Positions 1 to 60,288 of a stretch of DNA of 64,000 nucleotides are shown here, in pieces. Each line of letters opens with the position of its first letter. The first letter of the stretch is position 1. Source of the DNA: Candidatus Omnitrophica bacterium UBA6215. GTDB lineage: Bacteria; Omnitrophota; Gorgyraeia; Pluralincolimonadales; Pluralincolimonadaceae. The position numbers and the translations under genes are program-made. The stretch covers positions 209,278 to 273,277 of the forward strand of contig DISH01000007.1 of assembly GCA_002421665.1 (NCBI GenBank), read 5' to 3'. The notes under the pieces were generated by a model. That model saw nothing but the letters and a program-made list of their open reading frames with translations. It did no database searches and had not been told where the DNA came from.

Positions 1-741
1 CTCGCTGGCCTTAGCCGCCAAAGCATCCGCCACTTCCACCGGACAGCGCTTTGAGCCAATGCCGTGCAGATACATATTCATCGCGCACAACCGGGCCACG
101 GATTCTACGATATCCACGCCATACAAAGCCTCATTCACCATTAATTCCTTATCGCCTTTGGAGAGCGTAGGATTATTCTTTATCACATAATCAAAAGCAT
201 TCAGCAAAAACCCGCCGGTTCCGCAGGCAGGATCGCAAATCTTCATTCCCGGCTGGGGTTTCATTACTTCCACCATCGCCTTGATCAACGGCCGAGGAGT
301 AAAATACTGACCGGCGCCGCCTTTGGTATCCTGGGCATTCTTCTCCAACAATCCCTCATAAATCGTACCCTTGATATCAATATCCAGCCCCAGCCATTTC
401 TCGGCATCAATCATATTGATCAGTCGCTTCAGCTTAGCCGGGTCCTGGATTTTATTCTGGGACTTGCTGAAAATCCTGCCGATAATCCCGCGCTGTTTGC
501 TTAATTCCCGCAGCACCGTAATATAATGGCCTTCCAGCGGTTCGCCGTCCAGCTTCTTAAGCGACTTCCAACTATACTTGGCCGGGATCTCGCTGTCATG
601 CAACAACTCATCTCGCTCATCCGACATCTTCAGGAACAGCAAATACGTCAACTGCTCCACGTAATCGCCGTAACTTACGCCGTCATCCCGCAGCACATCG
701 CAGTAATTCCATACTTTTTGGACTATTTCATTTTCGCTCAT
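1..741 (-). CDS. hsdM: Type I R-M DNA methyltransferase subunit HsdM (N-terminal ~247 aa; gene runs off the window start)
   Basis: Minus-strand translation from the ATG at 739-741 reads MSENEIVQKVWNYCDVLRDDG...GQYFTPRPLIKAMVEV...ICDPACGTGGFL (HsdM N-domain plus SAM motif I). It is absent from the ORF track because it is open to the window edge. Confidence 0.85.
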   Translation of the reverse strand, partial: MSENEIVQKVWNYCDVLRDDGVSYGDYVEQLTYLLFLKMSDERDELLHDSEIPAKYSWKSLKKLDGEPLEGHYITVLRELSKQRGIIGRIFSKSQNKIQDPAKLKRLINMIDAEKWLGLDIDIKGTIYEGLLEKNAQDTKGGAGQYFTPRPLIKAMVEVMKPQPGMKICDPACGTGGFLLNAFDYVIKNNPTLSKGDKELMVNEALYGVDIVESVARLCAMNMYLHGIGSKRCPVEVADALAAKASE

Positions 742-760
742 AATTTATCCTCATAGAAGC

Positions 761-1774
761 TTAATCCTTCAATTGCGATAGAATAAAACATTTATTCTTA
801 AGAAAAGAAACAATCTTCTCATCTTTTTCGCCTCTAGTATAAATGTTTTTCCGAATTTCTTCATTGGGGCATACTCTATTCTCAAAATCGTAAATACTAC
901 TATTATCCGCTTCGTAGACGGTGGTATAAAATAGCTTATCTTGGATATTTTCTTGAAACACTTGATGCAAACCTAATCTTTCCATGTTAAGCGAATCAAA
1001 TCCAAATCCTAAAAAGAAAATATAGTCAGCTGCGGCTAAATATTGTTGAGCCTCTGTAAAAATAGCTTGCGTTCCATTAGAGGCATTAGGTCGAATGATC
1101 TCAACGTTTTTTGCAATCTCCCAAAACAAATGTGGCTTAGAAAAGTTAATAAGATTGTCTATTGCTCCATATGCTCTGCCGTCTTTTGTATATAAGTTAC
1201 CCACACTTCCATAAAAATGTAAGATTTTGATTTTATCTAGAAATTCCAAATACGTAGCTTGTTCTTTAGGGGTAGCAGAATGTATATAATTACGAACGTA
1301 ATAAGTTCTAGCAATATAATATTCTAGCGCAAGATCATAATTGAAAGTTATAAAACGAACTCTGCCGTTATGAAGTACTTTGTAATCATCATCTAAAAAA
1401 TTAAAAATGTGCCTATGCCAATTGTCATCAAAATTAAATACCAATCTTTGCCTATTACTTGCTTTTTCGGCAGATAAAATTGCATAGGTTATACCGGCAC
1501 GTCCTATTTTCTCAAAATCAATGGGTTGCTTTTCCTCTCTGGCTAAAACTCTTGCTAAAAAAGCATCGATACTATTTAATCCAGATTCTTCCAACCTATC
1601 AGAGAATATACCAATATCTCTACCCGAAATACCATATCCTTCCATAAATTTAATAAAGAGACTATCATGCTTATATCCAACGATTGTCTTTATTAATTCT
1701 GCACCTGTCGGATATCCAAAATCTTTGGATGCTCCTGCGCCTAAGACAAAAACAAACTTTTTATTATTCATCAT
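761..1774 (-). CDS. SIR2_2-family (sirtuin-like, predicted NAD+-consuming) protein, 337 aa
   Basis: Motifs FVFVLGAGAS, ITFNYDLALE, ILHFYGSVG and DYIFFLGFGFD match the SIR2_2 defence-type fold. Its start overlaps the stop of the upstream gene by 1 nt. It ends 19 bp before the hsdM start. Confidence 0.7.
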   Translation of the reverse strand: MMNNKKFVFVLGAGASKDFGYPTGAELIKTIVGYKHDSLFIKFMEGYGISGRDIGIFSDRLEESGLNSIDAFLARVLAREEKQPIDFEKIGRAGITYAILSAEKASNRQRLVFNFDDNWHRHIFNFLDDDYKVLHNGRVRFITFNYDLALEYYIARTYYVRNYIHSATPKEQATYLEFLDKIKILHFYGSVGNLYTKDGRAYGAIDNLINFSKPHLFWEIAKNVEIIRPNASNGTQAIFTEAQQYLAAADYIFFLGFGFDSLNMERLGLHQVFQENIQDKLFYTTVYEADNSSIYDFENRVCPNEEIRKNIYTRGEKDEKIVSFLKNKCFILSQLKD

Positions 1775-2616
1775 TAAATAGCCTCGTCCAAACGTCTTAA
1801 TAAATTACTAACAGCAAATAATCTCCCCAAAGCTTCTTGATGATCTATTTGTTTAATATCACCATGACTCAAAGAATTACGCCACCATTGCATAATCCCC
1901 ATAACGATATGCATAAATCCCTCTTGTTCGCATTGTTCAGTTTTATTGGATAAAGAATTCAATTTGATAAACGGGTGAGCTAAGTTAAAAACCTGCCCCA
2001 TCAAATCAATCCCCACAAGATTGCTTCCGCTTTTCTTCTGAACATAAGTTTCAAACTTCTCTAACGCCTTACGTACCGACTCATTAATATGCCCCTCCAG
2101 AAATAACTTCTGGCAATCCGGCATAAGTAGAGGATGTAAAGAAAACTTCTTTAGTATATCCTGAATCTCAAACGTCGGCGGGACAATGGTAGGCCTGGAT
2201 TTTGGCAAACTTAAGGCTAATATTTCTTTTCTAAGATCTATTCCTATCTTACATAGCTGCTTTGCGAATAATTCAGCCTCATCATACAGTATTGGATTGC
2301 CCTGTGAGTGTCTGCGCTCAATTGCTTGAGGCATTATTTCTCTAACAATAATCTTGATCGTCCTTGGTTTATCCTTATGTAGCTTGCGAATAAACTCAAC
2401 CAAAGCTTCTTTCTTTGAAGAACTCCCCTTAGATAGATACTTAGACAGTCCTCTTTTCTTGGCAATACTTACTATATTAAATCTGCTTTTATAGCCGGAA
2501 TAAGGCACAAGTTCGCCTAGCATTTCAGCCAATATACGGATATTCTGTATATCTACGGCTGAAAACCGTTTTACACACACCTTTTGTATTCTCTTCTTAT
2601 GTTTTCGCTTTTTCAT
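1774..2616 (-). CDS. HEPN-domain protein (Abi_C / TIGR02391-like C-terminus), 280 aa, basic N-terminus
   Basis: C-terminal block EGHINESVRKALEKFE...GIDLMGQVF...MQWWRNSLSHGD carries an Rx4H HEPN motif in an Abi_C-like context. N-terminus is Lys/Arg-rich (MKKRKHKKRIQK). Confidence 0.55.
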   Translation of the reverse strand: MKKRKHKKRIQKVCVKRFSAVDIQNIRILAEMLGELVPYSGYKSRFNIVSIAKKRGLSKYLSKGSSSKKEALVEFIRKLHKDKPRTIKIIVREIMPQAIERRHSQGNPILYDEAELFAKQLCKIGIDLRKEILALSLPKSRPTIVPPTFEIQDILKKFSLHPLLMPDCQKLFLEGHINESVRKALEKFETYVQKKSGSNLVGIDLMGQVFNLAHPFIKLNSLSNKTEQCEQEGFMHIVMGIMQWWRNSLSHGDIKQIDHQEALGRLFAVSNLLRRLDEAI

Positions 2617-2630
2617 TATTCCTTCAAACT

Positions 2631-3263
2631 CTATTCAATTTTCTTATCCAAAGAACGTAAAATTCTTGGACCTACATCTAATGCCCATAAAGCTGCATTA
2701 ACATCAACATCTTTTGCATGTACTGCACTATTGAGCAAACCGATTAGATCATCTAAGACACTTCTTTCCTCAATCGACAATAATTTATTATTTGCCAAGA
2801 CTACAAGTATCTGTTTTATCCCTCTCATAGGGATGTTTAACTGATGTTTTTCAGCAATATCGTTTAAACGTTTCTCAATTTCAATACGTAAGCCAGCCAA
2901 AGCGAGTTTAGGGTCTTCATTCGCGACTAACTGGAAAGAATATTTAGGAACTTTAGCGTTTGTAACAGTCTTACCAAGCAACCCTCCGGACTCTATCAAT
3001 CCTGCCTTCTCGGCTTCTCGAGTAACCTCCTGTAATTTTCGTAGCTCTACTTTCATCCCACCAGGGAATTCGATGGACTGAATTATCTCACGCAACCAAG
3101 GGATAAGAGCAATCACTATTAAAATTATAGTAATCGCATCCATTCTTAGATACCCCCAAAATGCATGCTCCACGGCCAAAATTAAAAAAATTACAGTTAC
3201 TAATATTTGTGCTCCTTTTTCTCTACAATAACTCCATATTGGAGATATCCAACGCTTGTTCAT
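2631..3263 (-). CDS. Hypothetical 2-TM membrane protein with cytoplasmic alpha-helical C-domain, 210 aa
   Basis: Two hydrophobic helices (ILVTVIFLILAVEHAFWGY / AITIILIVIALIPWL) precede a charged soluble domain. It overlaps the upstream gene by 4 nt (ATGA). No recognisable motif. Confidence 0.5.
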   Translation of the reverse strand: MNKRWISPIWSYCREKGAQILVTVIFLILAVEHAFWGYLRMDAITIILIVIALIPWLREIIQSIEFPGGMKVELRKLQEVTREAEKAGLIESGGLLGKTVTNAKVPKYSFQLVANEDPKLALAGLRIEIEKRLNDIAEKHQLNIPMRGIKQILVVLANNKLLSIEERSVLDDLIGLLNSAVHAKDVDVNAALWALDVGPRILRSLDKKIE

Positions 3264-4099
3264 AATACGTCACCCTCAATTATCTTAAACCCTCTTTTCT
3301 TGAGTTCCTCGGAAATTTCCTCCTTTAATTTAGGATTCTTTAACCGAGGGTCAATAATAACTCCATCCAAAAAATTCTGGAAATTATGCACAACTGGAAC
3401 GAGAGAAAACTCTTTCCCCATATCTAATTTACAGTTAGTTGCAATAAGTCTTATTTCATTCTCAAAATCAAAGCTACTTCTTTTTTCCAAATAACAACTG
3501 GCGATTGTTCTACTCTTGAAATAAGCCATCTGATCGGCCACGGTTCTTAAGAGGATGTCCATTCCATCATAATCAAAACTAGAATAATTAACTTCACCAG
3601 CCCAGAATGTTTCACTGTAATCTAGAACATCCTTACCGTTTTCTAAAGTTCGCATAATTTTATCAACGCTAGAAACCATCGCGACATTCCTATATTGTGG
3701 ATCTTTACCATACTCTTCCCACATTTTCTTTGATTGCTTCTTACTCCAACATTGGCAAAAAGTATCCTCAAAATACCTTTGCGTAACTATCAAGCCATCT
3801 GGCAGGATGACTTTTTTTCTTAAAATGATTGAATCTAATCGATCTCCGACAAGCCATTTCTTAGGATGACTAAAATATAAAACCTTGCCATCAACATTCG
3901 ATAAAAAATTATCTGATGTTTCTATTCTATAAACTGGGGAGAAACAATCTAGGGTTTCAGGAATAACATTCCTCGCATATGGTTTCCCATTGTATTCTTT
4001 TAGTTCCATGATTACTCTCTCAAGGCTATCCTTCAAGTGTTTTTCACCTTCTTTAGTGGACAAAAACTTACGCGCCTCATCAAAAATATCATTGTACAT
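3260..4099 (-). CDS. Hypothetical protein, 279 aa (no recognisable domain)
   Basis: Long AT-rich ORF, 17 bp downstream of hsdS on the same strand. It is translationally coupled to the 2-TM protein. Confidence 0.5.
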   Translation of the reverse strand: MYNDIFDEARKFLSTKEGEKHLKDSLERVIMELKEYNGKPYARNVIPETLDCFSPVYRIETSDNFLSNVDGKVLYFSHPKKWLVGDRLDSIILRKKVILPDGLIVTQRYFEDTFCQCWSKKQSKKMWEEYGKDPQYRNVAMVSSVDKIMRTLENGKDVLDYSETFWAGEVNYSSFDYDGMDILLRTVADQMAYFKSRTIASCYLEKRSSFDFENEIRLIATNCKLDMGKEFSLVPVVHNFQNFLDGVIIDPRLKNPKLKEEISEELKKRGFKIIEGDVL

Positions 4100-4116
4100 T
4101 TTTCAACCATTCCGCA

Positions 4117-5358
4117 TCAAAATTTAGCCTTTTCTTTCTTTATTCGCTCAAGCAAAACTTCTACCGGTTCATCAGCGGGATCAGGCTCAACCAGATTGCC
4201 TTCAAAAGCTTTCTTTAGAATACTCTGCTTTAGCTGCTCAATTTTATCCAAACCCTGAACCACTGCATCTTCAAGTATTTTTGCCCTCTCAAAATAGTCT
4301 TCTATAGCTTTCACTATTTGTAATTGTTCTTGAGAAGAACATAATGGGAACAAATACTGCAATAAATCATCCTTCCTTATTCCCTTAACAGTCGTTCCTG
4401 AAGTCTTAAACTTAACAGTACCGTAATAATAATAGAAGTAGTCAATATTAATTCTTTCTTTTAGAAAAAAGGCTCTTAAATCCTGGTTAATTGCCACAGC
4501 GATCTTATTAATTTGAATCTTCCCTACACTGATTCTAGTGCAAACAATTATGTTACCTGCAGGGATAAGATTAGTTGAACTACTTTCGACTGCTTTTTTT
4601 GTAATTCTATCAATGGTTGACTCTAAATATTTTCCTTCACTATTCATGTCTTTGACACTAGCCCAAGGGATATTTCCATTCCAATATTCCATATGATTCT
4701 TAGAAGGAGTCCCCCCACCTAAGTCTTTTGCTATTACATCAGCCAAAGTAACTCTACTAAAACTAATCCCAGGGGTTAATCTTCCTTCAAACGCCGATTT
4801 GAGCACTGACTGGCGATAGCGCTTGATTTCCTGCCGCACGCGCAGCAGCGAATCCTTGGCACTATCCAACCGCGAAAACAAACTTTCAATCTTGGCGACA
4901 ATGCGTTTTTGCTCAGAAAGAGAATATATCTCGATTGCAAGATCTTCGAGCTCCTTGGAAGGCACACGGAGCTGTCCTGCTGTCCCTGTCATCTTACTTC
5001 GTAAATATTTCCGAACCTTCTTTTGAATTAAGTAATAAAAACAGTACTTCGGATCGATAGCTTTGGCTAATCTTATAACGTGAAACTCAGTTGAACCGAA
5101 ACCAACACCATTTATCAAACCATTAACTAAAGCCAATTTACCATTTTCCATACAGGGAGTAATCTTCGCAAAAAGAATATCCCCATCCCTAAAAGAAGTA
5201 AACCTGCGTTTCCCTTCTTCGCTCTTAATTTTAGCAGATAAATCAACCATTCCCGTTTCAGCTTCTAGCGCCCTCATTGGTAGAAAACTGGCTATAAAAT
5301 TATTCTTAAGTTTATCTCTGGGATTAATAATTGCTATTTCTTTTATTTTTATTATCAT
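4117..5358 (-). CDS. hsdS: Type I R-M specificity subunit HsdS, 413 aa
   Basis: Central conserved block LSEQKRIVAKIESLFSRLDSA...LKSAFEGRLTP and C-terminal LKKAFEGNLV sit between two variable target-recognition regions. The conserved blocks are visibly GC-richer than the TRDs. Confidence 0.85.
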   Translation of the reverse strand: MIIKIKEIAIINPRDKLKNNFIASFLPMRALEAETGMVDLSAKIKSEEGKRRFTSFRDGDILFAKITPCMENGKLALVNGLINGVGFGSTEFHVIRLAKAIDPKYCFYYLIQKKVRKYLRSKMTGTAGQLRVPSKELEDLAIEIYSLSEQKRIVAKIESLFSRLDSAKDSLLRVRQEIKRYRQSVLKSAFEGRLTPGISFSRVTLADVIAKDLGGGTPSKNHMEYWNGNIPWASVKDMNSEGKYLESTIDRITKKAVESSSTNLIPAGNIIVCTRISVGKIQINKIAVAINQDLRAFFLKERINIDYFYYYYGTVKFKTSGTTVKGIRKDDLLQYLFPLCSSQEQLQIVKAIEDYFERAKILEDAVVQGLDKIEQLKQSILKKAFEGNLVEPDPADEPVEVLLERIKKEKAKF

Positions 5359-5564
5359 TCTATTTCTCTAACTGAGCTCCTGCCAATAGTTAACAAAACA
5401 AGGTTACATACGCAATATTTCTATCTCCAAAAATAAAAAAAGCCCCCAAGAATAACCCTTGCTCTCCTGAGAGATTCGAAAGCAATAAGCCTGCTCGATC
5501 TCTTCAAAAGCCTTCTTCTCTTTCTTCAATGAGATTTATTCTGCTTAAATGCGTATTATACATA

Positions 5565-6668
5565 CTATTCCCCTATTATTAAGACCTCGTACAACCCATG
5601 TCCATTTCGATGATTAAGCTTATACTTATACTTTTTTCTGAAGATGCGAACCTTTGGCTTGTACTTCAACATAAGTTTCTTAATCTTATAGATAGACGGA
5701 TATCCAGGCTGCCCATATGACAGAACTATTATTGAGTCCTTAAACTTATTGAATAAAGCGTCAAGATTATCCTCTATTTTTCCTTCATTCCAATGATTCT
5801 TTTGCTTAACCAGTCTCTTATTCTTTGTTTTTAAATCTATATTCTTGGGCCAATTGTCATAATCGACTATTCCGTCAAGGAAATGATATAGTTCGCGATA
5901 ATCTTTTGGCATTTTTTCGTCTGCTCTGGCATATGGAGGGTCAAAATAAACAAGATCAAATTTTCTGTTCTCTATGTCCAAAATATCCTGGGAAATGGCT
6001 TTATGCGTGGAACCATTTGAGAATACTTTGCTTGAAACTTCTTCATTAAAACGCTTCATCAACTTAGTAAAACAAGTATTCCATGTTATCTTATTGCCAA
6101 AACTACGCTCAATATTTTTAGCAGTTCTAAGCGAAAGATTTTTTCTATGAAAGAGGTTGAAAGGTCTTTTGCATAAACAGGACTGAAATAGTAAATGATA
6201 AGCCAAAGCCTGTTTCTTGGCCAAAACATCACCTTTATATCTTTCTGAGAGCATCTTTATGTTTAGTGCCATCACATCTAATAATCTGTTCTCCTCAGAA
6301 GTATAGTACACTCCTTTAAATGTATCCTCAATATAACTTGGATATTTGAAACCGTTTCGGTGAAATACAAATTCCAGATCGGCTTCATCTAAAGTAATTG
6401 AGTCATTCTCAATTAAAGCTACTCCCGTCATGCGATTAGACGGAAGAATATCGTTAAACGTCACTTTCTTATTCATCAATTTGAATAAATAACTAACACT
6501 GCCTGTGCCACCAAACCCATCGAGAACAGTTTTAAACTGCAGAGATTTTAGATTATCATGTATCCACGGCAATATGCTTCTCTTGCTACCTTGATACCTA
6601 GTAGTAGGAACTCTATGCAGGATATCCACTGGTCCTGCGATTATCTTTTCTTCCAGTTTTTTAATCAC
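5565..6668 (-). CDS. Dam-family (alpha-class, D12) N6-adenine DNA methyltransferase, 367 aa
   Basis: N-terminal FxGxG (DGFGGTGSVS) followed later by DPPY (LVYFDPPYA), which is the alpha-class motif order. It overlaps the upstream ORF by 4 nt. Confidence 0.7.
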   Translation of the reverse strand: MIKKLEEKIIAGPVDILHRVPTTRYQGSKRSILPWIHDNLKSLQFKTVLDGFGGTGSVSYLFKLMNKKVTFNDILPSNRMTGVALIENDSITLDEADLEFVFHRNGFKYPSYIEDTFKGVYYTSEENRLLDVMALNIKMLSERYKGDVLAKKQALAYHLLFQSCLCKRPFNLFHRKNLSLRTAKNIERSFGNKITWNTCFTKLMKRFNEEVSSKVFSNGSTHKAISQDILDIENRKFDLVYFDPPYARADEKMPKDYRELYHFLDGIVDYDNWPKNIDLKTKNKRLVKQKNHWNEGKIEDNLDALFNKFKDSIIVLSYGQPGYPSIYKIKKLMLKYKPKVRIFRKKYKYKLNHRNGHGLYEVLIIGE

Positions 6669-7429
6669 ACTCTTCCCCTGATTATCAAACCCAAAGATTG
6701 TTTTAATGCTCTTTTATATGTTGCATCCCCTATCACTTTAAGGACTTTTCTTTGGTTCACTACGCCTAGTGATTTAAAATCCTCGGATAATCCCAGTGCG
6801 AGTACAGTATTAACATATTTTTGGACATCTTTAAACCTACTGAGCCATTTGCCAAATTCTGCTTTTTTGTATGCTGGCGCTACGCCTTGAATTGTAGTCT
6901 GAAAAGAAGAAAAATTGCTGTGTACATATTTTGATAGCGTTGTATACATAGCACGTACTTTATCAAAAAGCTCTCCTCCTGCCTTACCTTTAAAGTTATT
7001 AACATCATCCAGATGCATAAAATAATCATAATTATCTCCCCAAACATGCTTTCCTTTAAAAAAAGCCTTATCATCTTTCCACCACTTCAGCTCTATAGGA
7101 TGCGATGAAAAATATACCAACCTCAAGACGGTTTCCAACTCCGCCCTTAAAGAAACGTGGGCTTGCTTATACAATGACATGCATGCAAAATAAATGGACA
7201 TGTAAGAATCCATAAACGTTTCTTTAATTAAATCTCTGGCTGAGGTGCCATACTTGCGTTCTAGAGTGTTTCTCCAAGTATCAAAGATGCTAACCATTAC
7301 TAATAGTTTTTCTATTTCGCGATGATTAGCCTTGAGAGTATCTTCCCAATTATTTTTACTCAAACGTTGCTGGCTGTCATACATAATCTTTGTTAACTTA
7401 GGCAACCTCTCGGCTTTGAATGTCTTCAT
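6665..7429 (-). CDS. Hypothetical protein, 254 aa (possible nuclease/effector partner of the MTase-ATPase cassette)
   Basis: ORF tightly packed between the 242-aa gene (2-bp gap) and the MTase (4-nt overlap). No recognisable motif. Confidence 0.45.
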   Translation of the reverse strand: MKTFKAERLPKLTKIMYDSQQRLSKNNWEDTLKANHREIEKLLVMVSIFDTWRNTLERKYGTSARDLIKETFMDSYMSIYFACMSLYKQAHVSLRAELETVLRLVYFSSHPIELKWWKDDKAFFKGKHVWGDNYDYFMHLDDVNNFKGKAGGELFDKVRAMYTTLSKYVHSNFSSFQTTIQGVAPAYKKAEFGKWLSRFKDVQKYVNTVLALGLSEDFKSLGVVNQRKVLKVIGDATYKRALKQSLGLIIRGRV

Positions 7430-7431
7430 TT

Positions 7432-8160
7432 TTACCTCACAAGAATAACAGCTAGTGAATAAAGCTGTTGTTGTGTATTGATATCTTTGCTTAAACTTGA
7501 GATTTTAAATATATTATACTTGTATTTTTGGCATAACAATTCGGCGACCTTCTTAATCAAATCCATTTTCTGCGTATTACTAGAAATTGTTGGAGGGAAA
7601 GCATCCAGGGCCAACCCTCCCCACCCACTAGATTGCATAGCATCAGAAACCCTTTTAACATTATCTCGAGAGATGTCTTCGGAATTAACAACTGTAGTTT
7701 GTAATAATACGAATCCTTTACTGCGTTTCTGCCCTTGTAAAACAATAAAACTCTCAACTTTCTCCAATTCCTTTTCAATCCTGGAGTTATTAACATATAT
7801 ATCTTGGGAAGAAAAATCAAGGTTCAGAATATCACATGGGAAAAGGGGATTAAGTTGACAGGTAGCCGTCGAGATAAGTTCATCGCATATAGAGCCATTC
7901 AAAACTACCCCTAACGCCTCCGTCTCTGCCCTAACAGCTTTGATCATATTGCTGACCCATAAAACACAATCTCCTCTTTGCACCAAATTATTATCTTCTA
8001 ATCGAGATATCTCTTTAAAATTAATTCCATCAGTCAAAGTAAAAAGCTTCATCTGTTTATTCTTTCTACGACTATTATAAAATCTGGCGCCTCCTTCTCT
8101 TGCCATAGGAAGCCAGAGTTCTTCTATCAATTGGTCTCTTAGGGTATCAATTTCTGCCAT
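7432..8160 (-). CDS. Hypothetical protein, 242 aa
   Basis: ORF 4 bp downstream of the GHKL ATPase gene. No recognisable motif. Confidence 0.45.
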   Translation of the reverse strand: MAEIDTLRDQLIEELWLPMAREGGARFYNSRRKNKQMKLFTLTDGINFKEISRLEDNNLVQRGDCVLWVSNMIKAVRAETEALGVVLNGSICDELISTATCQLNPLFPCDILNLDFSSQDIYVNNSRIEKELEKVESFIVLQGQKRSKGFVLLQTTVVNSEDISRDNVKRVSDAMQSSGWGGLALDAFPPTISSNTQKMDLIKKVAELLCQKYKYNIFKISSLSKDINTQQQLYSLAVILVR

Positions 8161-8164
8161 GTCA

Positions 8165-9838
8165 TTACCCTTTGAATACAGTCTCTATCAGATGATTCAA
8201 TTCACTTAGTAATTTTTCTTCGTCTTTCCTATCCTTAGCAATTAAGAGGAACCCCAAAGCGATCTTCTTGATAACGTCTTCGCTGATTTTGCTTTTGAAA
8301 AGTGGGTGTGAGGAATTAAAGGCCACCTTCTTCCCGGAACTATCCAGCTTACAGATAGAATAATGGCTTTTCTTGTAATCCCAGTCATCATAAGTCACAG
8401 AGAATTTCTTGTCGTCTATCTCAATACTCTCGACAAACTCAGGGTGATTGTCATAAATGACAATCGATTTTTCTTTTGGCTTAACTTCGACCGGCTGCTG
8501 TTTATCTTTGGGCTCTTCTTTTCTTGATATAATCTTAAACTGAGTTTTATCTGTTAATGCTTTCTTGATTGTCTCTAGGGTAGAGGTGATCCTTTCTCTG
8601 GATTTTTTTACCATCGGCTCTTTAGAAAGCCTTAATCTTTCTTTCGAGAAATGGAGTATATTTGCTTTTTTAAGCTCCTCAATTAATGGCTCAGAGTCTT
8701 TTAATGGCATTAAGGCTTGATAAATGTCCTTGTCTTGTACAGCCCATTTTTCTTGTACATCGCTCCACTTAGTGAGTTTTTTCCGGAAGAAATCCTGCAT
8801 CTCAGAAACTTCCTGCGTATAAGAAAAGCTGTCTCTGTCAATCATCAAGAAAGAATCCAGTCCGTCCAAGACACAAACTTCTCCGGAAATATAATTTAAT
8901 TTACCTGGCACTTTACCAGTAAGCTTGGAGACCTCAAAATCTGTCGGAAGGCCAACTGCAACATCCCTCAATCTTACCTGCAGCCCTCTCGCCTCTTCAG
9001 GCTCGACTGGCTTTTTCGCAGTGGTAATAACGTATTTTAGATGCACATTTCCGAATTTTTCTTCGCCCTTATCAAGAATCTCTATATTTTCGGGAACATT
9101 TCTGAAAAGTTCTTTTCCGTCGAGCCATAACCTCATTGGTACTCTTTCTGCATCGGCAAAGAAACTCCGCAATATTCTCTGTTCAGGTGAAAACTGTATT
9201 GGAGAATACTGACTTATTGTCCATTTGAATTTCTCAAAACCGCTAAATTTATCTATACTAGACCATCCAGAACCACTCTTTTGACGTAGCTCCTTGATGA
9301 GGTGTTGCTTTATGCCTTTTAACGATATGATAGTCTCTCCATCTTTCTTGGCTAAATCGCTCTTATGAACAGTGCATTTCGCCTTTTCTTTTTCGATATC
9401 AGAAGGAGTGCCGGTAAAGAAACGCTGTGTCTCAATCGTCAACTCAATAAGATCATCACTATCCATTTTTTTAGTAATCACATGGACTGTATTACAATAA
9501 GGAAAGACCGAAAGGCAACCGATACCAAAAGTGCCGATTCGTTTTCTTCCCAGCTCATCCAACTTGTCGGAAGGCTGTGTAACATAGCCTATCGTAAGAA
9601 ACTTTTTCTCAATATCCTCTAGGCTCATACCGCGACCATTATCTCTGACTATTATTTCTCCCCTATCAAGATCCAACTTTATTTTTACTTCAGTTGCGCC
9701 GGCATCATAAGAGTTTGATATAAGCTCTTTGATTGCTCGTGCAAAGTTACGATATAATCCCAAACTCAAATGACTTACTACTTCTTTGTTAACCTTAAAG
9801 GGTAATTCTACCTGTTTAGTTTGATTATCTATTTTCAT
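8165..9838 (-). CDS. GHKL-superfamily ATPase (HATPase_c_3, MORC/Hsp90/MutL-like Bergerat fold), ~557 aa
   Basis: N-box ELISNSYDAGA, G1 box RDNGRGMS and G2 box GTFGIGCLS. An AGGAGG sits 7 nt before the ATG at 9838 (the ORF track begins 2 codons earlier at a TTG). It begins 38 bp after the hsdR stop. Confidence 0.7.
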   Translation of the reverse strand: MKIDNQTKQVELPFKVNKEVVSHLSLGLYRNFARAIKELISNSYDAGATEVKIKLDLDRGEIIVRDNGRGMSLEDIEKKFLTIGYVTQPSDKLDELGRKRIGTFGIGCLSVFPYCNTVHVITKKMDSDDLIELTIETQRFFTGTPSDIEKEKAKCTVHKSDLAKKDGETIISLKGIKQHLIKELRQKSGSGWSSIDKFSGFEKFKWTISQYSPIQFSPEQRILRSFFADAERVPMRLWLDGKELFRNVPENIEILDKGEEKFGNVHLKYVITTAKKPVEPEEARGLQVRLRDVAVGLPTDFEVSKLTGKVPGKLNYISGEVCVLDGLDSFLMIDRDSFSYTQEVSEMQDFFRKKLTKWSDVQEKWAVQDKDIYQALMPLKDSEPLIEELKKANILHFSKERLRLSKEPMVKKSRERITSTLETIKKALTDKTQFKIISRKEEPKDKQQPVEVKPKEKSIVIYDNHPEFVESIEIDDKKFSVTYDDWDYKKSHYSICKLDSSGKKVAFNSSHPLFKSKISEDVIKKIALGFLLIAKDRKDEEKLLSELNHLIETVFKG

Positions 9839-9881
9839 GGTCAAACCTCCTATTCAATTTACTCTTCGGAAGAAAAATAAT

Positions 9882-12557
9882 CTATACCAACACACTATTC
9901 AACTCCTCCATAACATCATCCAGCCTATCCCCAAAAACTTCTTTCGCCTTAATAATCCCGCCGCTGCCGCTAAAGGGCGGCAGGAGGAAGTCTTTTTTAT
10001 CCACACTGCCGGAGCCGGCGATGTGCTCGGCAATCATAGTCAACCACTGAATCTGCCGGCCGGTGAAAGTTTTACCCAAAAACTGTTGATCTTTCAACCA
10101 TTCTTGGAAACGATGTTCCACATGCTCTTTAAACGGCTCCAGGACTTCTTCTTTGCGGACGGCAAAACGCACCAAAGAGATAATGTCGGTTAATTGGGTT
10201 TGCACGGAGAAGCCGCGCACTTTGGATTTTTCCAGTTGTTCGTATGCCTGCCAGAGGGCATCGGTGGTAAAGCCGTAAGGCGGCATTTCGATTTTTTCGG
10301 CTAAGTCGCGGATCTCTTCATAGGTAATATGGCGTTTTTTGTAGGGCAGGTTATAGATGATCTGCAGGGCAGTGATCTTATCTTTATTTTCTGCGACGAA
10401 CTGCTCGAACTTCTTGACCAGGGATAAAGCTTTTTCTTTGGCCTGTTGGTCAAAGCCGGATCTGATGATTTTATCTACGGTAGTAGTGTCAATGGTCTGT
10501 TCGGCCTTGGTTTGTAACGCCGTAAGCAGTTGGCGAAAATCCGGATTATCAAAGGGCGCGCAGGCTTGGTCCCGGTCAGGAGCGGTATCCGGATCGATAA
10601 CGGACATAAGATCGTTGGTAATGTCGGTTAAGGACTTGCCGCCGGATGCTTCTTTAATCCGCTGAATGTCTCTCTCCTCTAATTCCAGGTTCAGGCGCGC
10701 TAAACGCGAAGCCAGGCTGGAAAGTGTATCATTATCCCGGATGCCGATGGCTACGTTGTTGAGTAATTTAGGCGTAGGAACGCTTTTCTGGCGGTCAAGG
10801 GTAGTGGTCTGGCTCTTCTCGCTTTCGCAGACGCCAACGGCATCCACGATCACAAAATGAGTTTTGGCTCTGGCGTCGGAGGTTACCGCGTGCAAATCAT
10901 CCGGATCAATCACCCGGGTGCCGCGGCCTTTCATCTGCTCGAAATAGACCGCGGATTTGACGTCACGCATAAATAAGATACATTCCAGGGGCTTGATGTC
11001 GGTGCCGGTTGAGATCATATCCACGGTTACGGCAATCCGGGGATTGAAGCTATTGCGAAAGGCGGCGATCAGGTCATCGGTGTTTTCTTGGGTGCGGTAG
11101 GTTATTTTCTTGCAGAAATCATTGCCTTTACCGAATTCTTCGCGCACGATACCGGTGATGTCCTCGGCATGGCTATCGTCTTTGGCGAAAATCAGGGTTT
11201 TCGGGACTTCACTGCGTCCGGGAAAGATTTCCGTAAAGAGTTTATCCTTAAACTCGCGGGTAACCGTGCGGATCTGATCTTTAACCACAATACTACGGTC
11301 AAGCTGATCCGGAGTGTAATCTAAATCCTCGTCCAGCTTTTCCCAGCGAAGTTTGCGAGTAAGTTTGTCGCGTTTGTCCACGTAAAAACCGGAAAGGATC
11401 TTGCCCCCTTTTTCCGTAGTCTCGGTGCGAATGCGGTAAACATCAAAACCGACGTTGACCTTATCCGCCACTGCCCGATTGTGGTCGTATTCCATCACCA
11501 GGTTCTTGTTAAAGAAACCGATGGTCTGATTAGACGGGGTGGCAGTAAGGCCGATGATAAAGGAATCAAAGTATTCCAGGACCTGGCGCCAGAGATTGTA
11601 AATGGAGCGGTGGCATTCGTCCACGATGATGAAGTCAAAGGTTTCAATGGGGATCTTGCCCCGGAATTTGATCGCCTGGGGGTCGATGTCAAGCGCAGAT
11701 GATTCATAAAGGGACTTCTCTTCCAAACTGGCGTCCAGTTCCTGGTCGCCTTTAAGCATGGAGAAAAGGCGCTGGATGGTGGTAATGCAAACCTTGGCGT
11801 CCTGGTCAAAGACGTTGGTGGCCATATGCTGGACAATATAGAGATCGGTGAAACAGCGGTTGTCGTCAAAAGGGATATAGCTCTGGAATTCTTTTTTGAC
11901 CTGCCGGCCCAGAGAACAGCGATCAACCAAGAAGAGAATACGGCGGGCCTTGGCGAATTTGATCAGGCGGTAGATTTCGCTGATGGCGGTGTAGGTTTTG
12001 CCACTGCCGGTAGCCATTTGCAGAAGCGCGCGCGGACGGCTGTCATGTAAAGATACTTCCAGATTCTTGACCGCCTCGATCTGGCACTGGCGCAGGTTAT
12101 AGGGATCTAATGGCGGTAATTCGCGCAGGCGCCGGCGCAGGGTTTGCGGATCCTGGACCCATTCGGCTAAAGTTGCCGGGCTGTGAAAAGCAAAAACCCG
12201 GCGGGAACAAGGATCCGGATCACGCTGACTGCGAAAAAAGGTCTCAATACCGGTAGATTCGTAGGCAAACGGCAGAACATCGTCAATATGCGGCAGGTTT
12301 TCAGGGATTGAGGCATTGTAGCGGGCGGTTTGTTCAGCCACGCCGGAAAGCGTGGTGCCTTCGGTTTTGGCTTCCACGGTGCCGACGGCTTTACGATCCA
12401 CAAAAAGCAAATAATCGGCCGGGCCGGATTTAGTGGGAAACTCCCGGACAGCTACTCCCCTGCCGGCGGAAAGATTAATCTTACGGACATCCTGGATAAT
12501 CCATCCGGCTTCTTTTAATAAATCATCGATAACTTTACGTGCCTCTGCTTCGCTCAT
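9882..12557 (-). CDS. hsdR: Type I restriction enzyme R subunit HsdR, 891 aa
   Basis: N-terminus MSEAEARKVIDDLLKEAGW...PADYLLF matches the HsdR_N nuclease domain. Downstream are SF2 helicase motifs (GSGKT, DECHRS). GC is host-like. Confidence 0.85.
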   Translation of the reverse strand: MSEAEARKVIDDLLKEAGWIIQDVRKINLSAGRGVAVREFPTKSGPADYLLFVDRKAVGTVEAKTEGTTLSGVAEQTARYNASIPENLPHIDDVLPFAYESTGIETFFRSQRDPDPCSRRVFAFHSPATLAEWVQDPQTLRRRLRELPPLDPYNLRQCQIEAVKNLEVSLHDSRPRALLQMATGSGKTYTAISEIYRLIKFAKARRILFLVDRCSLGRQVKKEFQSYIPFDDNRCFTDLYIVQHMATNVFDQDAKVCITTIQRLFSMLKGDQELDASLEEKSLYESSALDIDPQAIKFRGKIPIETFDFIIVDECHRSIYNLWRQVLEYFDSFIIGLTATPSNQTIGFFNKNLVMEYDHNRAVADKVNVGFDVYRIRTETTEKGGKILSGFYVDKRDKLTRKLRWEKLDEDLDYTPDQLDRSIVVKDQIRTVTREFKDKLFTEIFPGRSEVPKTLIFAKDDSHAEDITGIVREEFGKGNDFCKKITYRTQENTDDLIAAFRNSFNPRIAVTVDMISTGTDIKPLECILFMRDVKSAVYFEQMKGRGTRVIDPDDLHAVTSDARAKTHFVIVDAVGVCESEKSQTTTLDRQKSVPTPKLLNNVAIGIRDNDTLSSLASRLARLNLELEERDIQRIKEASGGKSLTDITNDLMSVIDPDTAPDRDQACAPFDNPDFRQLLTALQTKAEQTIDTTTVDKIIRSGFDQQAKEKALSLVKKFEQFVAENKDKITALQIIYNLPYKKRHITYEEIRDLAEKIEMPPYGFTTDALWQAYEQLEKSKVRGFSVQTQLTDIISLVRFAVRKEEVLEPFKEHVEHRFQEWLKDQQFLGKTFTGRQIQWLTMIAEHIAGSGSVDKKDFLLPPFSGSGGIIKAKEVFGDRLDDVMEELNSVLV

Positions 12558-12568
12558 ACAACCTCTAT

Positions 12569-13258
12569 TCAGTTATCTGAAAAACTATAGTAATCAGCCC
12601 CGCCTACGATTATATGGTCGAGAACCTCGATTCCCAGTAAATCTGCGGCGGCGGATAAGTCTTCGGTAAATTTCTTGTCTTGAGCGCTCGGTGCAGCGTT
12701 GCCGCTTGGGTGGTTGTGAACGCAAACGATAGATTTGGCGAATTTTTGCAATGCGGCGTGAATTATTTCGCGAACAATAGGAAATGCCTTATCGACCGTG
12801 CCGACGGCCGTATCCGAAATATCGATTATGCGGTTGTTGTTGTCGAGATACACCACCTTGAAAACTTCAGTCTTAAGATCGCGGAGTTGGGGCATTATTA
12901 TATCTACGACATCTTTGGCGGAGGCGACCTTTTGTTTGCCGGTGGACACATCGTCCTGACGATAGCGCCGCCCGATTTCAAGCGCGGCTTGAATATGGGC
13001 AATCTTGGCCCCGCCTAAACCTTTGAATTCTTTCCAATCTCTTGTATCTGTGTGAGCCATGCTCCGAAACGAGCCGAATTTCTTGAGGATAGCTCGGGCG
13101 AGGTCTATCGCGCTGGTCCCCTTTGTGCCTGTGCGAAGAAGAATTGCCAGAAGCTCCGAATCGCTCAAAGCCCCCGCCCCCTTCTTGAGCAGCTTCTCGC
13201 GCGGCCTGTCGTCTATGGGCCAGCTTTTGATACCGGTTATTCGATTCGTTTTTTTCAT
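12569..13258 (-). CDS. radC: RadC-family JAB/MPN domain protein, 229 aa
   Basis: HNHPSGNAAPSAQD JAMM motif plus an N-terminal HhH region. It ends 11 bp before hsdR. Confidence 0.8.
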   Translation of the reverse strand: MKKTNRITGIKSWPIDDRPREKLLKKGAGALSDSELLAILLRTGTKGTSAIDLARAILKKFGSFRSMAHTDTRDWKEFKGLGGAKIAHIQAALEIGRRYRQDDVSTGKQKVASAKDVVDIIMPQLRDLKTEVFKVVYLDNNNRIIDISDTAVGTVDKAFPIVREIIHAALQKFAKSIVCVHNHPSGNAAPSAQDKKFTEDLSAAADLLGIEVLDHIIVGGADYYSFSDN

Positions 13259-13266
13259 ATTTATTG

Positions 13267-14706
13267 CTAGAAGAACAAGAGAAATATCGACAATGGAATG
13301 AACAGCAGCTTCTTTTCGTCTTGCGTCTTAACGAAATCTTTTGTCACAACAATTCCAAATTTCTGATCAAAAGCGTTAACAAAATACTTGATTGACGCCA
13401 GATCGTCCATCGCATCTCTATATTTGACTTCGACCGGCAGATACCGCTTGCCGCCTACATGAACTACAAAATCGACCTCGCGTTTCGCGTCCTTATAGTA
13501 AGACAGCTCTATTGCTCCCTCGAATTGCCGCAAGGCGTTAAATACGAGATTTTCGGCATAAAATCCCATGGCTGAGGGGTCGCTTAAAACGCTTTCGTTC
13601 AGTTTCAAGATAGCGTTTCGCAGCGCTAAATCAAGAAGATAGCATTTCACGCTACCCCGCCTGAACTTAAGCGGCCTTTTTGAGAATCGAGGTAGCGTTT
13701 TTACGAGATCTGTCATTTCCAAAAGCGGCAAATATTTTTCAAGCATCGGCCTGCTGACGCCAACCTTCTGAGAGGCCTTTTCTATATTAATCTCTTGTCC
13801 GGGCTGTTCGATAAGCGACAAATAGTAACTCTTTATTTTCTCCGGCTTCCGGAACTCCGTAGCTATAATCAAATCCTCGAAAATCACCTTTTGTACCTGA
13901 TTATCGAAAAGGTATTCCTGCTTGGCAACAATATCTTCTATTTCCCAGGACTCCGGGAATCCTCCTTCGATAAAATATCTATTCAACTGAATGTTTAATT
14001 CGCGAAAGACGTTCCCCGGAACGTTCAATGGACCGGATTCCGATTGAAATTCCTTCCAATCAACGGCCATTTCTCTTTGAAGTTTATATCCGAAAGCCTG
14101 AGCGCGTTTTACGAAATCAAGGACCTCGCTATCGCCCGCTTTATGAAAATAAACGAATTCCTTGAAAGAAAACGGCAATATATGATTATCTTTTATCCTT
14201 CCTAATAGACTCTCTCGGCTTTTACGGAATATCGGCGATGAGGCGGAACCGGATATGACAAATCTTACAGGAAACCCGAGGTCATAGTATTTCTTCAGAT
14301 ACAGCTCCCAGCGGTCAAAACGCTGAACTTCATCCAGAAAAAAATAAACCGTTTCGCTTTTACGCGTAATATCGGCCCACTTTATCATCTCATCGAAGAA
14401 ATGTTCGCGCATCTGTGGTTCCGACAAAAGTGGATCATCGAAAGAAAAATAGACAATTTGATTGGGCTTGGCATGACCGTCATTAATCAGTGATTGGATA
14501 ATTTGTTTAAGGAGGGTTGTCTTTCCGACTCGACGCGGTCCTGTAATCGAAATGATTTGTTTCAGTGATAAGAGGTCTTTGTAGATTTTATGAAAGACGG
14601 GTCTTTTAAAAACCTCGGTTTTAACTACGCCTTCTTTCCACCAATGGTTATATGGAGTTAATATCGCCTCTATCTGAACGCCGTCAAATTCGCCTCTTCT
14701 CACCAA
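13267..14706 (-). CDS. AAA+ ATPase with DUF4143 C-terminal domain (AAA_14 family), 479 aa
   Basis: Walker A ITGPRRVGKTTLL and Walker B FFLDEVQ. Overall architecture is typical of the DUF4143 ATPase family. Confidence 0.7.
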   Translation of the reverse strand: MVRRGEFDGVQIEAILTPYNHWWKEGVVKTEVFKRPVFHKIYKDLLSLKQIISITGPRRVGKTTLLKQIIQSLINDGHAKPNQIVYFSFDDPLLSEPQMREHFFDEMIKWADITRKSETVYFFLDEVQRFDRWELYLKKYYDLGFPVRFVISGSASSPIFRKSRESLLGRIKDNHILPFSFKEFVYFHKAGDSEVLDFVKRAQAFGYKLQREMAVDWKEFQSESGPLNVPGNVFRELNIQLNRYFIEGGFPESWEIEDIVAKQEYLFDNQVQKVIFEDLIIATEFRKPEKIKSYYLSLIEQPGQEINIEKASQKVGVSRPMLEKYLPLLEMTDLVKTLPRFSKRPLKFRRGSVKCYLLDLALRNAILKLNESVLSDPSAMGFYAENLVFNALRQFEGAIELSYYKDAKREVDFVVHVGGKRYLPVEVKYRDAMDDLASIKYFVNAFDQKFGIVVTKDFVKTQDEKKLLFIPLSIFLLFF

Positions 14707-14789
14707 AACCTCCTATATATTTATGTAAACTATATTTAACATAAATATACTTATTTGTCAACCCTTTAATTATCAATGGGTTAGCCCGC

Positions 14790-15161
14790 TCAAATCTTCC
14801 CCCAAAACTCCTCGCACTTCATTGGCGTCGCCCGTGCATCCTTCGCGTAAAAATACAGCGAGCGGTCGGAGGAGACGACGCGCAGGTTGCGGCGCTGTCG
14901 TGGGGCGATGCTGTCGATGTAGCGCTTAATCCAGCCGTCGGCGTCCTTTGCCGCGACGATGCGCAGCTTCGCGGTGCTCCTTATGGGCATATCGAGGTAC
15001 TCGTTCTTGCTGTCGAAGACAAGTACTATCGGGTCCGCGTGCGACTCCTGGAACTTCTCGAGTATCGCTATCAAGTGCGCGGCCCCGGCGAGGGCGTCGT
15101 CATAATCTATGCTGCTGTGCTCGTGGCGCACCATGTTCCAACCGTCGATGATTATGGGCAT
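14790..15161 (-). CDS. YacP/Rae1-like NYN (PIN-like) domain protein, 123 aa
   Basis: PIIIDGWNMV, IVLVFDS and RVVSSDRSLY align with YacP (LLVDGYNMI, VIVVFDA, ATSDYTEQ). Confidence 0.55.
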   Translation of the reverse strand: MPIIIDGWNMVRHEHSSIDYDDALAGAAHLIAILEKFQESHADPIVLVFDSKNEYLDMPIRSTAKLRIVAAKDADGWIKRYIDSIAPRQRRNLRVVSSDRSLYFYAKDARATPMKCEEFWGKI

Positions 15162-15163
15162 TC

Positions 15164-15991
15164 TTACCTTATGAAATAACCTTTAACTCGAGGCCGCGTA
15201 AAATAAACAACTATAAACACCGATAACGCAATCATAATAATAAAAAACCCCGACCTTATAAACAAACCTAAGGCATCGGATAACCGGAGTACTATAAACG
15301 AAAACACGATACCTGTTACCCAGGAAAATATAACATGTAAAAACCAAGCCAAGCGCAAGCGAAATACGGTTAAAATAGACCTTATAATCAACAATATCCC
15401 CGCAAGAAAAAGAAATCTATAATCAAACCATGGCAAACCTAAAAGTTGCCGCGCAATATATAAAGTGATTGCCCCGACTAAAAAATCCGCTAAACATAAA
15501 CCCTGTATCACCGGCAACCTGCGAAGCGGGTTGTTCTCAATCCTGTTTTTAATGACCGTTGTGGTTGTCCAACCCAAAGCTAAAATTGCGGATATGACAT
15601 TAACTAAAGTGATGGGCGGAAAACCTCTGATAATATTTGGGTCAGCCTTAACCGCTTCCGCTATAGTTCCAGCAACGGCTAATATTACTATATAAAACAT
15701 AACAACAAAATATAAATCCATAACAACAAAACGCCACAATATATCCCAACCGATAAAATCGGTTATTGCAAAGTTATACTTGGTTTTTGAGATCTTTTTG
15801 CCCAAAAAGTCAAAAAGAAATAAACATATAACAGCGCAAATACCGTACTGTAGCGGCTGCAGGCGTTCCGGTATCAAGAAACCCCTTCCCCCGTCCATGT
15901 TAATTTGAGCTATCAGGAAAAACAGGAAAAATATCGGGAAAGTTCTCCAGAACATCGACCAGCCGTTTATAATATCTTCTTTGGTAAACAA
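15164..15991 (-). CDS. Polytopic membrane protein, 275 aa
   Basis: About 7 hydrophobic helices. The C-terminal ~45 aa are paralogous to the downstream 128-aa protein. Confidence 0.55.
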   Translation of the reverse strand: MFTKEDIINGWSMFWRTFPIFFLFFLIAQINMDGGRGFLIPERLQPLQYGICAVICLFLFDFLGKKISKTKYNFAITDFIGWDILWRFVVMDLYFVVMFYIVILAVAGTIAEAVKADPNIIRGFPPITLVNVISAILALGWTTTTVIKNRIENNPLRRLPVIQGLCLADFLVGAITLYIARQLLGLPWFDYRFLFLAGILLIIRSILTVFRLRLAWFLHVIFSWVTGIVFSFIVLRLSDALGLFIRSGFFIIMIALSVFIVVYFTRPRVKGYFIR

Positions 15992-16001
15992 TTAGACCGC
16001 C

Positions 16002-19411: not shown

Positions 19412-19421
19412 AGGTGTCTTG

Positions 19422-60254: not shown

Positions 60255-60288
60255 GATGGGCCTCCTTATTGGTGATCGCTTATCTGAG

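Follow-up and report, generated by a model that had tools for sequence, protein, structure and literature searches.

Defence genes embedded in type I restriction-modification (R-M) operons have been described under the heading of "guilt-by-embedding" (Payne et al., 2024, bioRxiv 10.1101/2024.01.29.577857), with PrrC in EcoprrI as the classic case; a co-directionality of 96.7% is reported there for embedded defence genes. GHKL ATPases are known from R-M-like operons (Iyer, Abhiman & Aravind, 2008; PMC2292703), and paraMORC-Ymh HEPN fusions occur in R-M neighbourhoods (Anantharaman et al., 2013; PMC3710099). The subject here is a type I R-M operon of Candidatus Omnitrophica bacterium UBA6215, at the start of a 64,000-nucleotide (nt) stretch (contig DISH01000007.1, positions 209,278 to 273,277; hereafter the window, to which coordinates refer unless a locus is named), in which eight cargo genes lie between hsdR and hsdM.

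As in the cases of Payne et al. (2024), co-directional immune genes lie between hsd genes, HEPN RNases are among the cargo, and one cargo protein matches PDC-S31, a model derived from that approach. The differences are that both junctions are loaded, with 8 genes over 9.1 kb, and that the cargo includes a complete system of four genes with a methylase among them, here called cassette A. Embedding in type I R-M operons being already known, this locus is a new, unusually heavily loaded case within a larger defence island; the new parts are cassette A and the recombination stubs found in related loci. We consider it likely that the operon is a scaffold, both internal junctions of which have been filled with horizontally acquired defence cargo.

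The loaded hsd operon

All genes of the locus are on the minus strand. Downstream of hsdR (9882-12557; 891 amino acids, aa), the R-S junction holds cassette A: genes for a GHKL (MutL/paraMORC-like) ATPase (8165-9844, 559 aa), u242 (7432-8160, 242 aa), u254 (6665-7429, 254 aa) and a D12-class N6-adenine DNA methyltransferase (5565-6668, 367 aa). A 206-bp spacer (5359-5564) separates it from hsdS (4117-5358, 413 aa). The S-M junction then holds genes for a DUF2971 protein (3260-4099, 279 aa), u210 (2631-3263, 210 aa), a Ymh-family HEPN protein (1774-2616, 280 aa) and a divergent SIR2-like protein (761-1774, 337 aa), the last in a variable slot beside hsdM, whose 5′ part (1-741, 247 of 484 aa) runs off the window. 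As far as the window extends, the three hsd genes and the eight cargo genes are all unbroken, with catalytic motifs kept.

The open reading frame (ORF) coordinates and the hsdR, hsdS and hsdM identities given in the initial annotation match the ORF map and the Pfam, PADLOC and NCBIfam results, and its picture of AT-rich, co-directional, closely packed cargo with a single long intergenic gap was borne out: the spacers run from -4 to 37 bp, apart from the one of 206 bp. The comparison of GC and codon composition that it had set beforehand as a check gave a strongly non-uniform result, with GC at 0.328-0.387 across all eight cargo genes and third-position GC (GC3) at 0.25-0.40, versus GC of 0.506 (hsdR) and 0.498 (hsdM), GC3 of 0.60-0.63 for these two genes, and a GC of about 0.52 in the remaining window. 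Its attribution of host-like GC to the hsd genes holds for hsdR and hsdM and fails for hsdS (0.374), which is as AT-rich as the cargo. It had also considered the hsdS-before-hsdM order unusual; this was mistaken, the order being R-S-M in 55 of 55 related loci.

Loci with near-identical backbones (given L numbers here) differ at the same positions, as that annotation had anticipated for inserted genes. In L007, from an Omnitrophota metagenome-assembled genome (MAG), HsdR is 90% and HsdM 95% identical to the window proteins; DNA homology stops at the hsdR stop codon (9886) and restarts at the hsdM ATG (742), and between them conserved hsdS segments alone align. The L007 cargo is wholly unrelated to that of the window, with genes for proteins of 953 and 230 aa and an HNH_5 protein before hsdS, and ORFs of 142 aa, a Y1 transposase-like ORF, and ORFs of 259 and 99 aa after it. 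In L096 (HsdR and HsdM both 95%), homology likewise ends at 9886, and it resumes within 742-747, at the hsdM ATG. Its R-S slot holds ThsB-TIR/TIR_2 genes; its S-M slot has counterparts of the window DUF2971 (90%), u210 (86%), Ymh (92%) and SIR2-like (62%) genes, followed by a remnant of the hsdM 5′ end, three more genes including Fic, and then the real hsdM. In L099 (HsdR 90%, HsdM 92%), the R-S slot is taken by a 447-aa ORF and a gene for a D12 methylase of 281 aa. L099 retains DUF2971-u210-Ymh at 73-90% (DUF2971 73%, in the same position). Where the window has its SIR2-like gene, L099 carries an AbiGi-like ORF; two stubs come next, with a 187-aa ORF between them, and then an AAA14/DUF4143 gene and hsdM.

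Since the DUF2971-u210-Ymh block beside hsdS is common to the window, L096 and L099, it is the oldest shared block, which predates the R-S cassette and does not represent a recent insertion; the idea that candidate immune modules were inserted into the junctions of a type I operon stands in its core, with this correction. The slots beside hsdR and hsdM are the most variable among the compared backbones, and the cargo was acquired in layers. Backbone copies 85-95% identical have been binned to Planctomycetales, Omnitrophota and Sulfurovum MAGs, and the hsd backbone itself is probably mobile. An E. coli origin of the locus was rejected, megablast of window 1-13000 finding no match in 5,426 E. 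coli genomes.

A related genome, L088, lacks the operon altogether. It matches both window flanks at 74-80% nt identity (14790-15160, 16377-17130, and sequence that precedes the window start), around an island of about 11 kb with mostly different genes, none of them hsd; one is a SIR2-like gene 57% identical to that of the window. Because these flanks match on both sides, the hsd operon lies inside a variable island of about 18 kb. Neither att-like sites nor flanking repeats were found in the window, where short repeats are at chance level only, and no tRNA or Rfam element was found in window 1-20000.

The backbone proteins are typical of their families. HsdR, of EcoEI/EcoAI type, matches Pfam EcoEI_R_C (4.7e-43), ResIII (8e-38), Helicase_C and, weakly, HSDR_N, as well as NCBIfam EcoAI/FtnUII (1.4e-56), and is 90-95% identical in L006, L007, L096 and L099. 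HsdM matches N6_Mtase (1e-31), HsdM_N (1.4e-15) and PADLOC MTase_I (9e-97), with NPPF at 255-258. HsdS has two Methylase_S stretches, corresponding to two target-recognition domains, and matches PADLOC Specificity_I (3.7e-92). Its gene is a mosaic: GC3 is 0.331, only the central conserved stretch of about 150 nt (nt 451-600) reaches a GC of 0.49, and alignment to L007 and L096 is confined to 4775-4922 (89-94%) and 4123-4335 (74-75%). The HsdM-contact regions are conserved and follow the backbone, and the AT-rich target-recognition domains are swapped. In L096, HsdS (4647-6161, 504 aa) is fused to a GIY-YIG nuclease domain.

One contig with identical proteins, L001, continues beyond the window. 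It has the whole of hsdM (484 aa) and, after a spacer of 3 bp, a gene for an Mrr-family type IV endonuclease, then unannotated ORFs of 210 and 208 aa (all three at L001 12492-14782). The possibility that the embedded hsdS is an orphan, with a second hsdS downstream of hsdM, is thereby ruled out; no second hsdS lies beyond the edge, and the R...S...M layout is therefore real. The mrr gene is missing after hsdM in L096 and L099 and is one more variable module. With the order hsdR-hsdS-hsdM-mrr, the type I operon looks intact, and restriction and methylation are predicted. In L001 1-1893, the same element as window 9882-12557, hsdR is divided among three ORFs, of 476+, 325 and 94 aa. The window and L002 have it unbroken, and the split reflects either decay of the restriction subunit or an assembly error.

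The 206-bp spacer is a possible terminator or promoter region. It carries a weak hairpin followed by a U-run, and three minus-strand promoter-like matches lie in or beside it (5604-5575, 5582-5555, 5386-5357), with the caveat that the host's promoter type may differ. Over the region 48 such matches were observed, against 30.6 +/- 5.3 expected, AT-rich DNA yielding many. A structured RNA in 5359-5564 was looked for, and folding was no better than that of shuffled sequences (z -0.51). The spacer lies outside cassette A and has no homolog in any related locus, and its sequence is specific to the mosaic of this window. A putative internal promoter here is plausible.

Upstream of hsdR, within the same variable island and on the same strand, Pfam matches identify a RadC-like JAB protein (12569-13258) and an AAA_14/DUF4143 ATPase (13267-14706). 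The gene for the latter is 80% identical to the AAA14/DUF4143 gene directly upstream of hsdM in L099 (L099 9265-10707). Since the L099 copy is in the S-M gap and the window copy upstream of RadC-hsdR, such a gene can sit inside or outside the hsd operon. Further upstream, two AT-rich ORFs without a Pfam match (15164-15991, 275 aa; 16002-16388, 128 aa) sit between genes for an NYN_YacP protein (14790-15161) and a UvrD/PD-(D/E)xK-type helicase (16376-19411); in L088 these two genes have nothing between them. Far from the operon, at 60001-62000, there is a second dip in GC, to 0.407 versus about 0.52.

Cassette A

The same four genes as in cassette A (5565-9844), in the same order and with the same sizes, occur outside type I R-M operons in three settings that are unrelated to one another. 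In L092, from a Brocadiaceae MAG, they adjoin a HepT/MNT pair; in L094 they lie among TraU/TraH genes; and in L095 they are next to a type III R-M system, on an element that also carries TraG, a relaxase and a serine recombinase. Nucleotide homology to these free-standing copies is 70-74% over about 4.3 kb. It begins near the GHKL start codon (9844), at 9858 versus L094 and 9808 versus L092 and L095, and ends at the methylase stop (about 5566). The GC of the cassette is about 0.36 in every host, so its low GC is intrinsic. A fifth copy has a u254 homolog at 37% identity in the same operon, and the D12 methyltransferase gene is fourth in all five copies examined, including that of the window. 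No copy was found on annotated plasmids, phages or viral contigs. On this comparison of sequences, cassette A is an autonomous, conserved four-gene operon and a candidate immune system.

Upstream of the free-standing copies there is a tiny HTH_17-like ORF of 34-40 aa (L092 7135-7239, L094 7050-7172) or, in the same position, an unannotated 53-aa ORF (L095 6937-7098). The embedded copy lacks it and may have lost its own regulator. Because the embedded cassette begins 37 bp past the hsdR stop, the arrangement suggests that it relies on read-through from hsdR.

Of the four proteins, the GHKL ATPase matches HATPase_c_3 (4e-18), with intact Bergerat motifs (E40xxxN44xxD47, D68xGxG, G104xxGxG), and resembles PMS2/MutL in PDB. 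Its N-terminal 170 aa match the BbrUII/HgiDII restriction endonuclease family (9e-30) and the sacsin ATP-binding domain (1e-11); its C-terminal part, about 370 aa, has no Pfam or PDB match. The D12 methylase matches MethyltransfD12 (7.7e-16) and PADLOC MTase_II (1.3e-45), with FGGTG at 52-56 and DPPY at 243-246. The two middle proteins have no family match in Pfam, PADLOC or PHROGs; in NCBIfam u254 has none, and u242 has a single sub-threshold match to the PP_RS20740 family (E 6e-5, 22.5 bits versus a 200-bit cut-off). Profile searches of u242, u254 and u210, and of the GHKL C-terminus, against PDB gave nothing useful. By structure prediction, applied to u242 and u254, u242 has the fold of a class I S-adenosylmethionine (SAM) methyltransferase, of a rare family, and u254 is all-helical with a HEPN-like fold; the invariant residues of u254 are E70, D74, R95 and H170.

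One way to read these genes is as an ordinary type II R-M system, in which a BbrUII/HgiDII-like enzyme is paired with a Dam-like methylase and the middle genes are unrelated accessories. The N-terminus of the GHKL protein does match that enzyme family and PADLOC REase_II models, and a D12 methylase with intact motifs adjoins it. The match is limited, however, to the ATPase domain of about 170 aa (104 bits versus a family cut-off of 550), the C-terminal 370 aa are unlike those of BbrUII/HgiDII enzymes, and u242 and u254 keep their place and length strictly, even at 37% identity, so that they are integral to the cassette. We regard the type II reading as unlikely.

Cassette A is instead most likely a methylation-based system of self/non-self discrimination, of hypothetical mechanism. 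The D12 methylase would mark host adenines as self; the GHKL ATPase, with the methyltransferase-fold and HEPN-like subunits, would sense unmarked DNA; and sensing would trigger nuclease or RNase action. The nearest precedents are the GHKL R-M-like operons and the paraMORC-HEPN fusions cited above. With the MORC/paraMORC systems and PADLOC Mza (MzaB) it shares a MutL-like GHKL ATPase, an operonic DNA methylase, a HEPN-type partner, mobility and an association with defence islands. About 70% of described paraMORC/MORC neighbourhoods include a superfamily II (SF-II) helicase and/or a recognisable nuclease; domain scans found neither in cassette A. Membership in Mza or MADS was tried and rejected, the matches being marginal and to GHKL-domain or HsdM/HsdS-type models only. 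No description of a GHKL/methyltransferase-fold/HEPN-like/D12-methylase combination was found in the literature. If the reading is right, cassette A would be a bacterial counterpart of the Hsp90-like ATPase and HEPN combination of eukaryotic sacsin.

The S-M genes and their dependence on Hsd

The initial annotation divided the cargo into three cassettes. That the R-S cargo is one four-gene unit agrees with the above; the S-M cargo behaves as single genes, three of them co-inherited, and not as two two-gene cassettes.

The DUF2971 protein matches PDC-S31 (2e-26 over 211 of 245 profile positions) and, weakly, the Pfam family (E 2e-4, 23 bits versus a 22-bit cut-off). DUF2971 proteins are predicted DarT-like ADP-ribosyltransferases (PMC12522546; PMC11381338), with an experimentally validated antiphage member, Aristaios, a single-gene abortive-infection system of lactococcal plasmids (PMC11381338). 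The window protein resembles Aristaios in its DUF2971 and PDC-S31 matches; its sequence contains E213xE215, a candidate for the ExE motif expected of the family. Unlike Aristaios, its gene is hsd-embedded and not plasmid-borne, and the likeness is one of family.

The u210 protein has at least 585 homologs. It is a predicted membrane-anchored, divergent HEPN protein (DUF4145-like), with two hydrophobic helices (about 17-39 and 39-62) and invariant R126, R132, N178 and H182; members of its family match DUF4145 (7 of 34), HepT-like (4 of 34) and HEPN_Swt1 (3 of 34) models. Homologs are free-standing in L097 and L098. An obligate pair of DUF2971 and u210 is not supported, u210 being alone in these two loci and PDC-S31 and Aristaios being single-gene systems.

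The Ymh protein, a predicted RNase of a family known from R-M operons (PMC3710099), matches Hypoth_Ymh (PF09509; 3.8e-25, 88.5 bits versus 25), TIGR02391 (2.5e-18, 66.3 versus 39.45), PADLOC PD-Lambda-3_B (1.4e-10) and Aga_HEPN (1.8e-9), and has R246x4H251. It is 85-92% identical in L096, L099 and L100, there also between hsdS and hsdM.

The SIR2-like protein, a predicted NADase, is divergent, with PADLOC SIR2 at 3e-5, a weak Aga_SIR2 match and a sub-threshold match to Pfam SIR2_2 (PF13289, E 0.11). In its family, of 474 homologs, SIR2_2 is matched by 24 of 40 members at E<=0.01, and G12, A13, G14, S16, N145, D147 and H186 are invariant in a 40-sequence alignment. PDB matches are weak, N-terminal, and to SIR2 NADases only (KomC, E 0.03). 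Like the SIR2 NADase effectors (ThsA, DSR, SIR2-HerA, KomC, pAgo-associated SIR2), it has a GAGxS NAD loop and catalytic Asn and His; it differs from them in being short (337 aa) and stand-alone, without a SLOG, HerA, pAgo or STAND partner. Homologs are free-standing in L086-L091. Compared with the L096 allele (L096 8493-9500), the ends are 77-100% and the centre 30-63% identical at the aa level, the neighbouring genes being 86-92% identical; diversifying selection or partial gene conversion could account for this central divergence. A two-gene system of Ymh and SIR2-like genes was considered and rejected: six SIR2-like loci, in four distinct contexts, have no Ymh neighbour, and L099 and L100 carry Ymh without a SIR2-like gene.

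Because their homologs occur singly in unrelated places, the SIR2-like and u210 genes are independent single-gene modules, and the linkage of the S-M genes reflects common descent within one hsd lineage.

These distributions bear on a PrrC-type guard model, in which the embedded effectors, perhaps with the GHKL/HEPN pair, are held inactive by the Hsd complex and fire only once a phage anti-restriction protein disables the type I enzyme, so that embedding is mechanistically required. Three HEPN-type genes are embedded in the window; where their context is visible, Ymh relatives from the metagenome scan are all in the hsdS-hsdM interval; and paraMORC-Ymh fusions in R-M loci have been proposed as PrrC/RloC analogues (Anantharaman et al., 2013; PMC3710099). 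On the other side, cassette A as a whole, the SIR2-like gene and u210 have homologs remote from any hsd genes (in the interval from queA to tgt, at the end of a prophage, in toxin-antitoxin islands, on conjugative elements), unrelated families occupy the same slots in sister loci, and Aristaios, the validated DUF2971 system, is listed as single-gene. The window differs from PrrC/RloC, in which an ABC ATPase is fused to a C-terminal HEPN nuclease, in that no cargo protein has an ABC ATPase domain, its HEPN proteins being Ymh, the DUF4145-like u210 and u254. The analogy with PrrC drawn in the initial annotation is apt as a concept; an obligatory dependence on the Hsd complex is argued against, because every cargo family traced elsewhere is also free-standing (Ymh and DUF2971 were followed within hsd loci only). 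We consider the guard model distinctly unlikely.

Cargo turnover and its meaning

A scan of one genome per species for HsdR relatives gave 80 loci with 52-95% identity. Order and spacer statistics were taken from the 55 with hsdR and a downstream hsdM, and cargo counts, for ORFs of at least 90 aa, from 51 usable loci. The spacer between hsdR and hsdS exceeds 1 kb in 30 of the 55, that between hsdS and hsdM in 27, and both do in 15; the hsdR-to-hsdM distance reaches at most 8.6 kb, less than in the window. Of the 51 loci, ten are compact and 41 carry cargo, with 136 embedded ORFs in all, evenly split between the junctions, of which 104 are co-directional. In bulk scans this cargo is dominated by Fic/SoFic, MNT-HepT, Schlafen-AlbA_2/HATPase_c_4 (PDC-S04/S09), OLD/Gabija/PARIS-type AAA ATPases, PIN, KAP NTPase, reverse transcriptases, HamA and AbiEii; tblastn at 1e-5 found no homologs of the window cargo in the 80 loci. 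Both junctions are recurrent cargo sites, mostly for defence or toxin families.

Gene-end stubs in relatives of the window locus suggest how cassettes enter. Within the S-M gaps of five loci, between stacked cassettes, the first 41-92 nt of hsdM occur in extra copies: L007 (19204-19268, 20472-20512), L026 (18260-18318), L081 (13040-13110), L096 (9519-9568) and L099 (8421-8489, 9111-9176). Each matches hsdM of its own locus (E-values 1e-14 to 1e-21). They begin at the ATG in four of the five loci, the L081 copy being hsdM nt 22-92, and some are decayed; the L096 stub, for instance, contains a stop codon. At the other junction, the R-S gaps of L022 (13501-13553), L062 (15079-15225), L064 (13576-13629) and L075 (13928-13980) each contain an extra copy of about the last 53-147 nt of hsdR.

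The pattern fits homology-facilitated illegitimate recombination, with hsdR as the upstream and hsdM as the downstream anchor. One crossover would take place by homology inside a conserved anchor gene; at the other end, an illegitimate join would fall a few tens of nt inside the recipient's copy of that gene. New cassettes would then settle beside the anchor genes, and older ones would shift next to hsdS. The route of cassette entry is not discussed by Payne et al. (2024). Integron cassette arrays offer a parallel: they too have tandem, promoter-less, co-directional cassettes at a fixed site beside a conserved gene, and in some hsd relatives a short sequence is repeated between cassettes. The hsd loci differ in having no integrase or attC-like folded sites, and their repeats are hsdM or hsdR fragments with variable end points, for which reason a fixed site-specific crossover is unlikely and homology-anchored illegitimate recombination is favoured.

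The same turnover might instead reflect selfish hitch-hikers: toxin-like or addiction modules and a mobile R-M unit, which accumulate at the junctions because insertions are tolerated there and travel along with a mobile hsd operon. Such cargo would be of no net use in immunity and might interfere with type I function. Clade cargo is indeed rich in toxin-antitoxin and toxin families (Fic, MNT-HepT, PIN, AbiEii), IS200-type transposase genes make up 3 of the 136 cargo ORFs, stubs are decaying, and hsdR is in three ORFs in the L001 copy of this element. Set against this are the intactness of the hsd and cargo genes in the window, the predominant co-directionality of clade cargo, in keeping with that of embedded defence genes elsewhere, the lack of obvious antitoxin partners for the four single effectors, and the validated antiphage members of several cargo families. 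A purely selfish cargo seems to us very improbable.

Several points also weigh against the preferred reading of a scaffold filled with defence cargo. The defence function of the cargo is read from family membership and context. In cassette A, u242 has no Gly-rich SAM loop, u254 has no conserved Rx4-6H (R103x6H110 is present, but the R103 column is not conserved), and there is no recognisable nuclease. Counted downstream from hsdR, hsdS comes after 4.5 kb and hsdM after 9 kb, both behind cargo, so that polar effects could impair the type I system, and the promoter evidence in the 5359-5564 gap is weak. The MAG labels of near-identical backbones may be binning errors and not signs of inter-phylum transfer. 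Finally, the window itself contains no stubs, so that the evidence for the recombination model comes from related loci; only about 10% of the loci have any, and the end points of the stubs vary (41-92 nt).

On the reading of the operon as a scaffold for defence cargo, layered immunity would come from one co-directional unit. The type I enzyme, Mrr and cassette A would act at the level of DNA restriction, and the DarT-like ADP-ribosyltransferase, two HEPN RNases and the SIR2 NADase would form a backup layer of abortive infection. A more far-reaching proposal, which we put forward tentatively and hold somewhat less probable than its negation, combines two claims: that cassette A is an undescribed, autonomous, mobile immune system, with methylation self-marking, a GHKL-driven sensor and possibly an RNase effector; and that the clade is an integron-like platform without an integrase, in which stubs are left behind and the newest-to-oldest order of the cargo can be read.

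Cassette A is compact, conserved and easily cloned and tested, and current defence and domain libraries contain neither of its two middle genes. The window, L007, L096 and L099 form a natural series for testing the dependence of effectors on the host type I enzyme, or their synergy with it. The hsdM-5′ and hsdR-3′ stubs, for their part, suggest a route of acquisition that the key paper on embedding leaves unaddressed.

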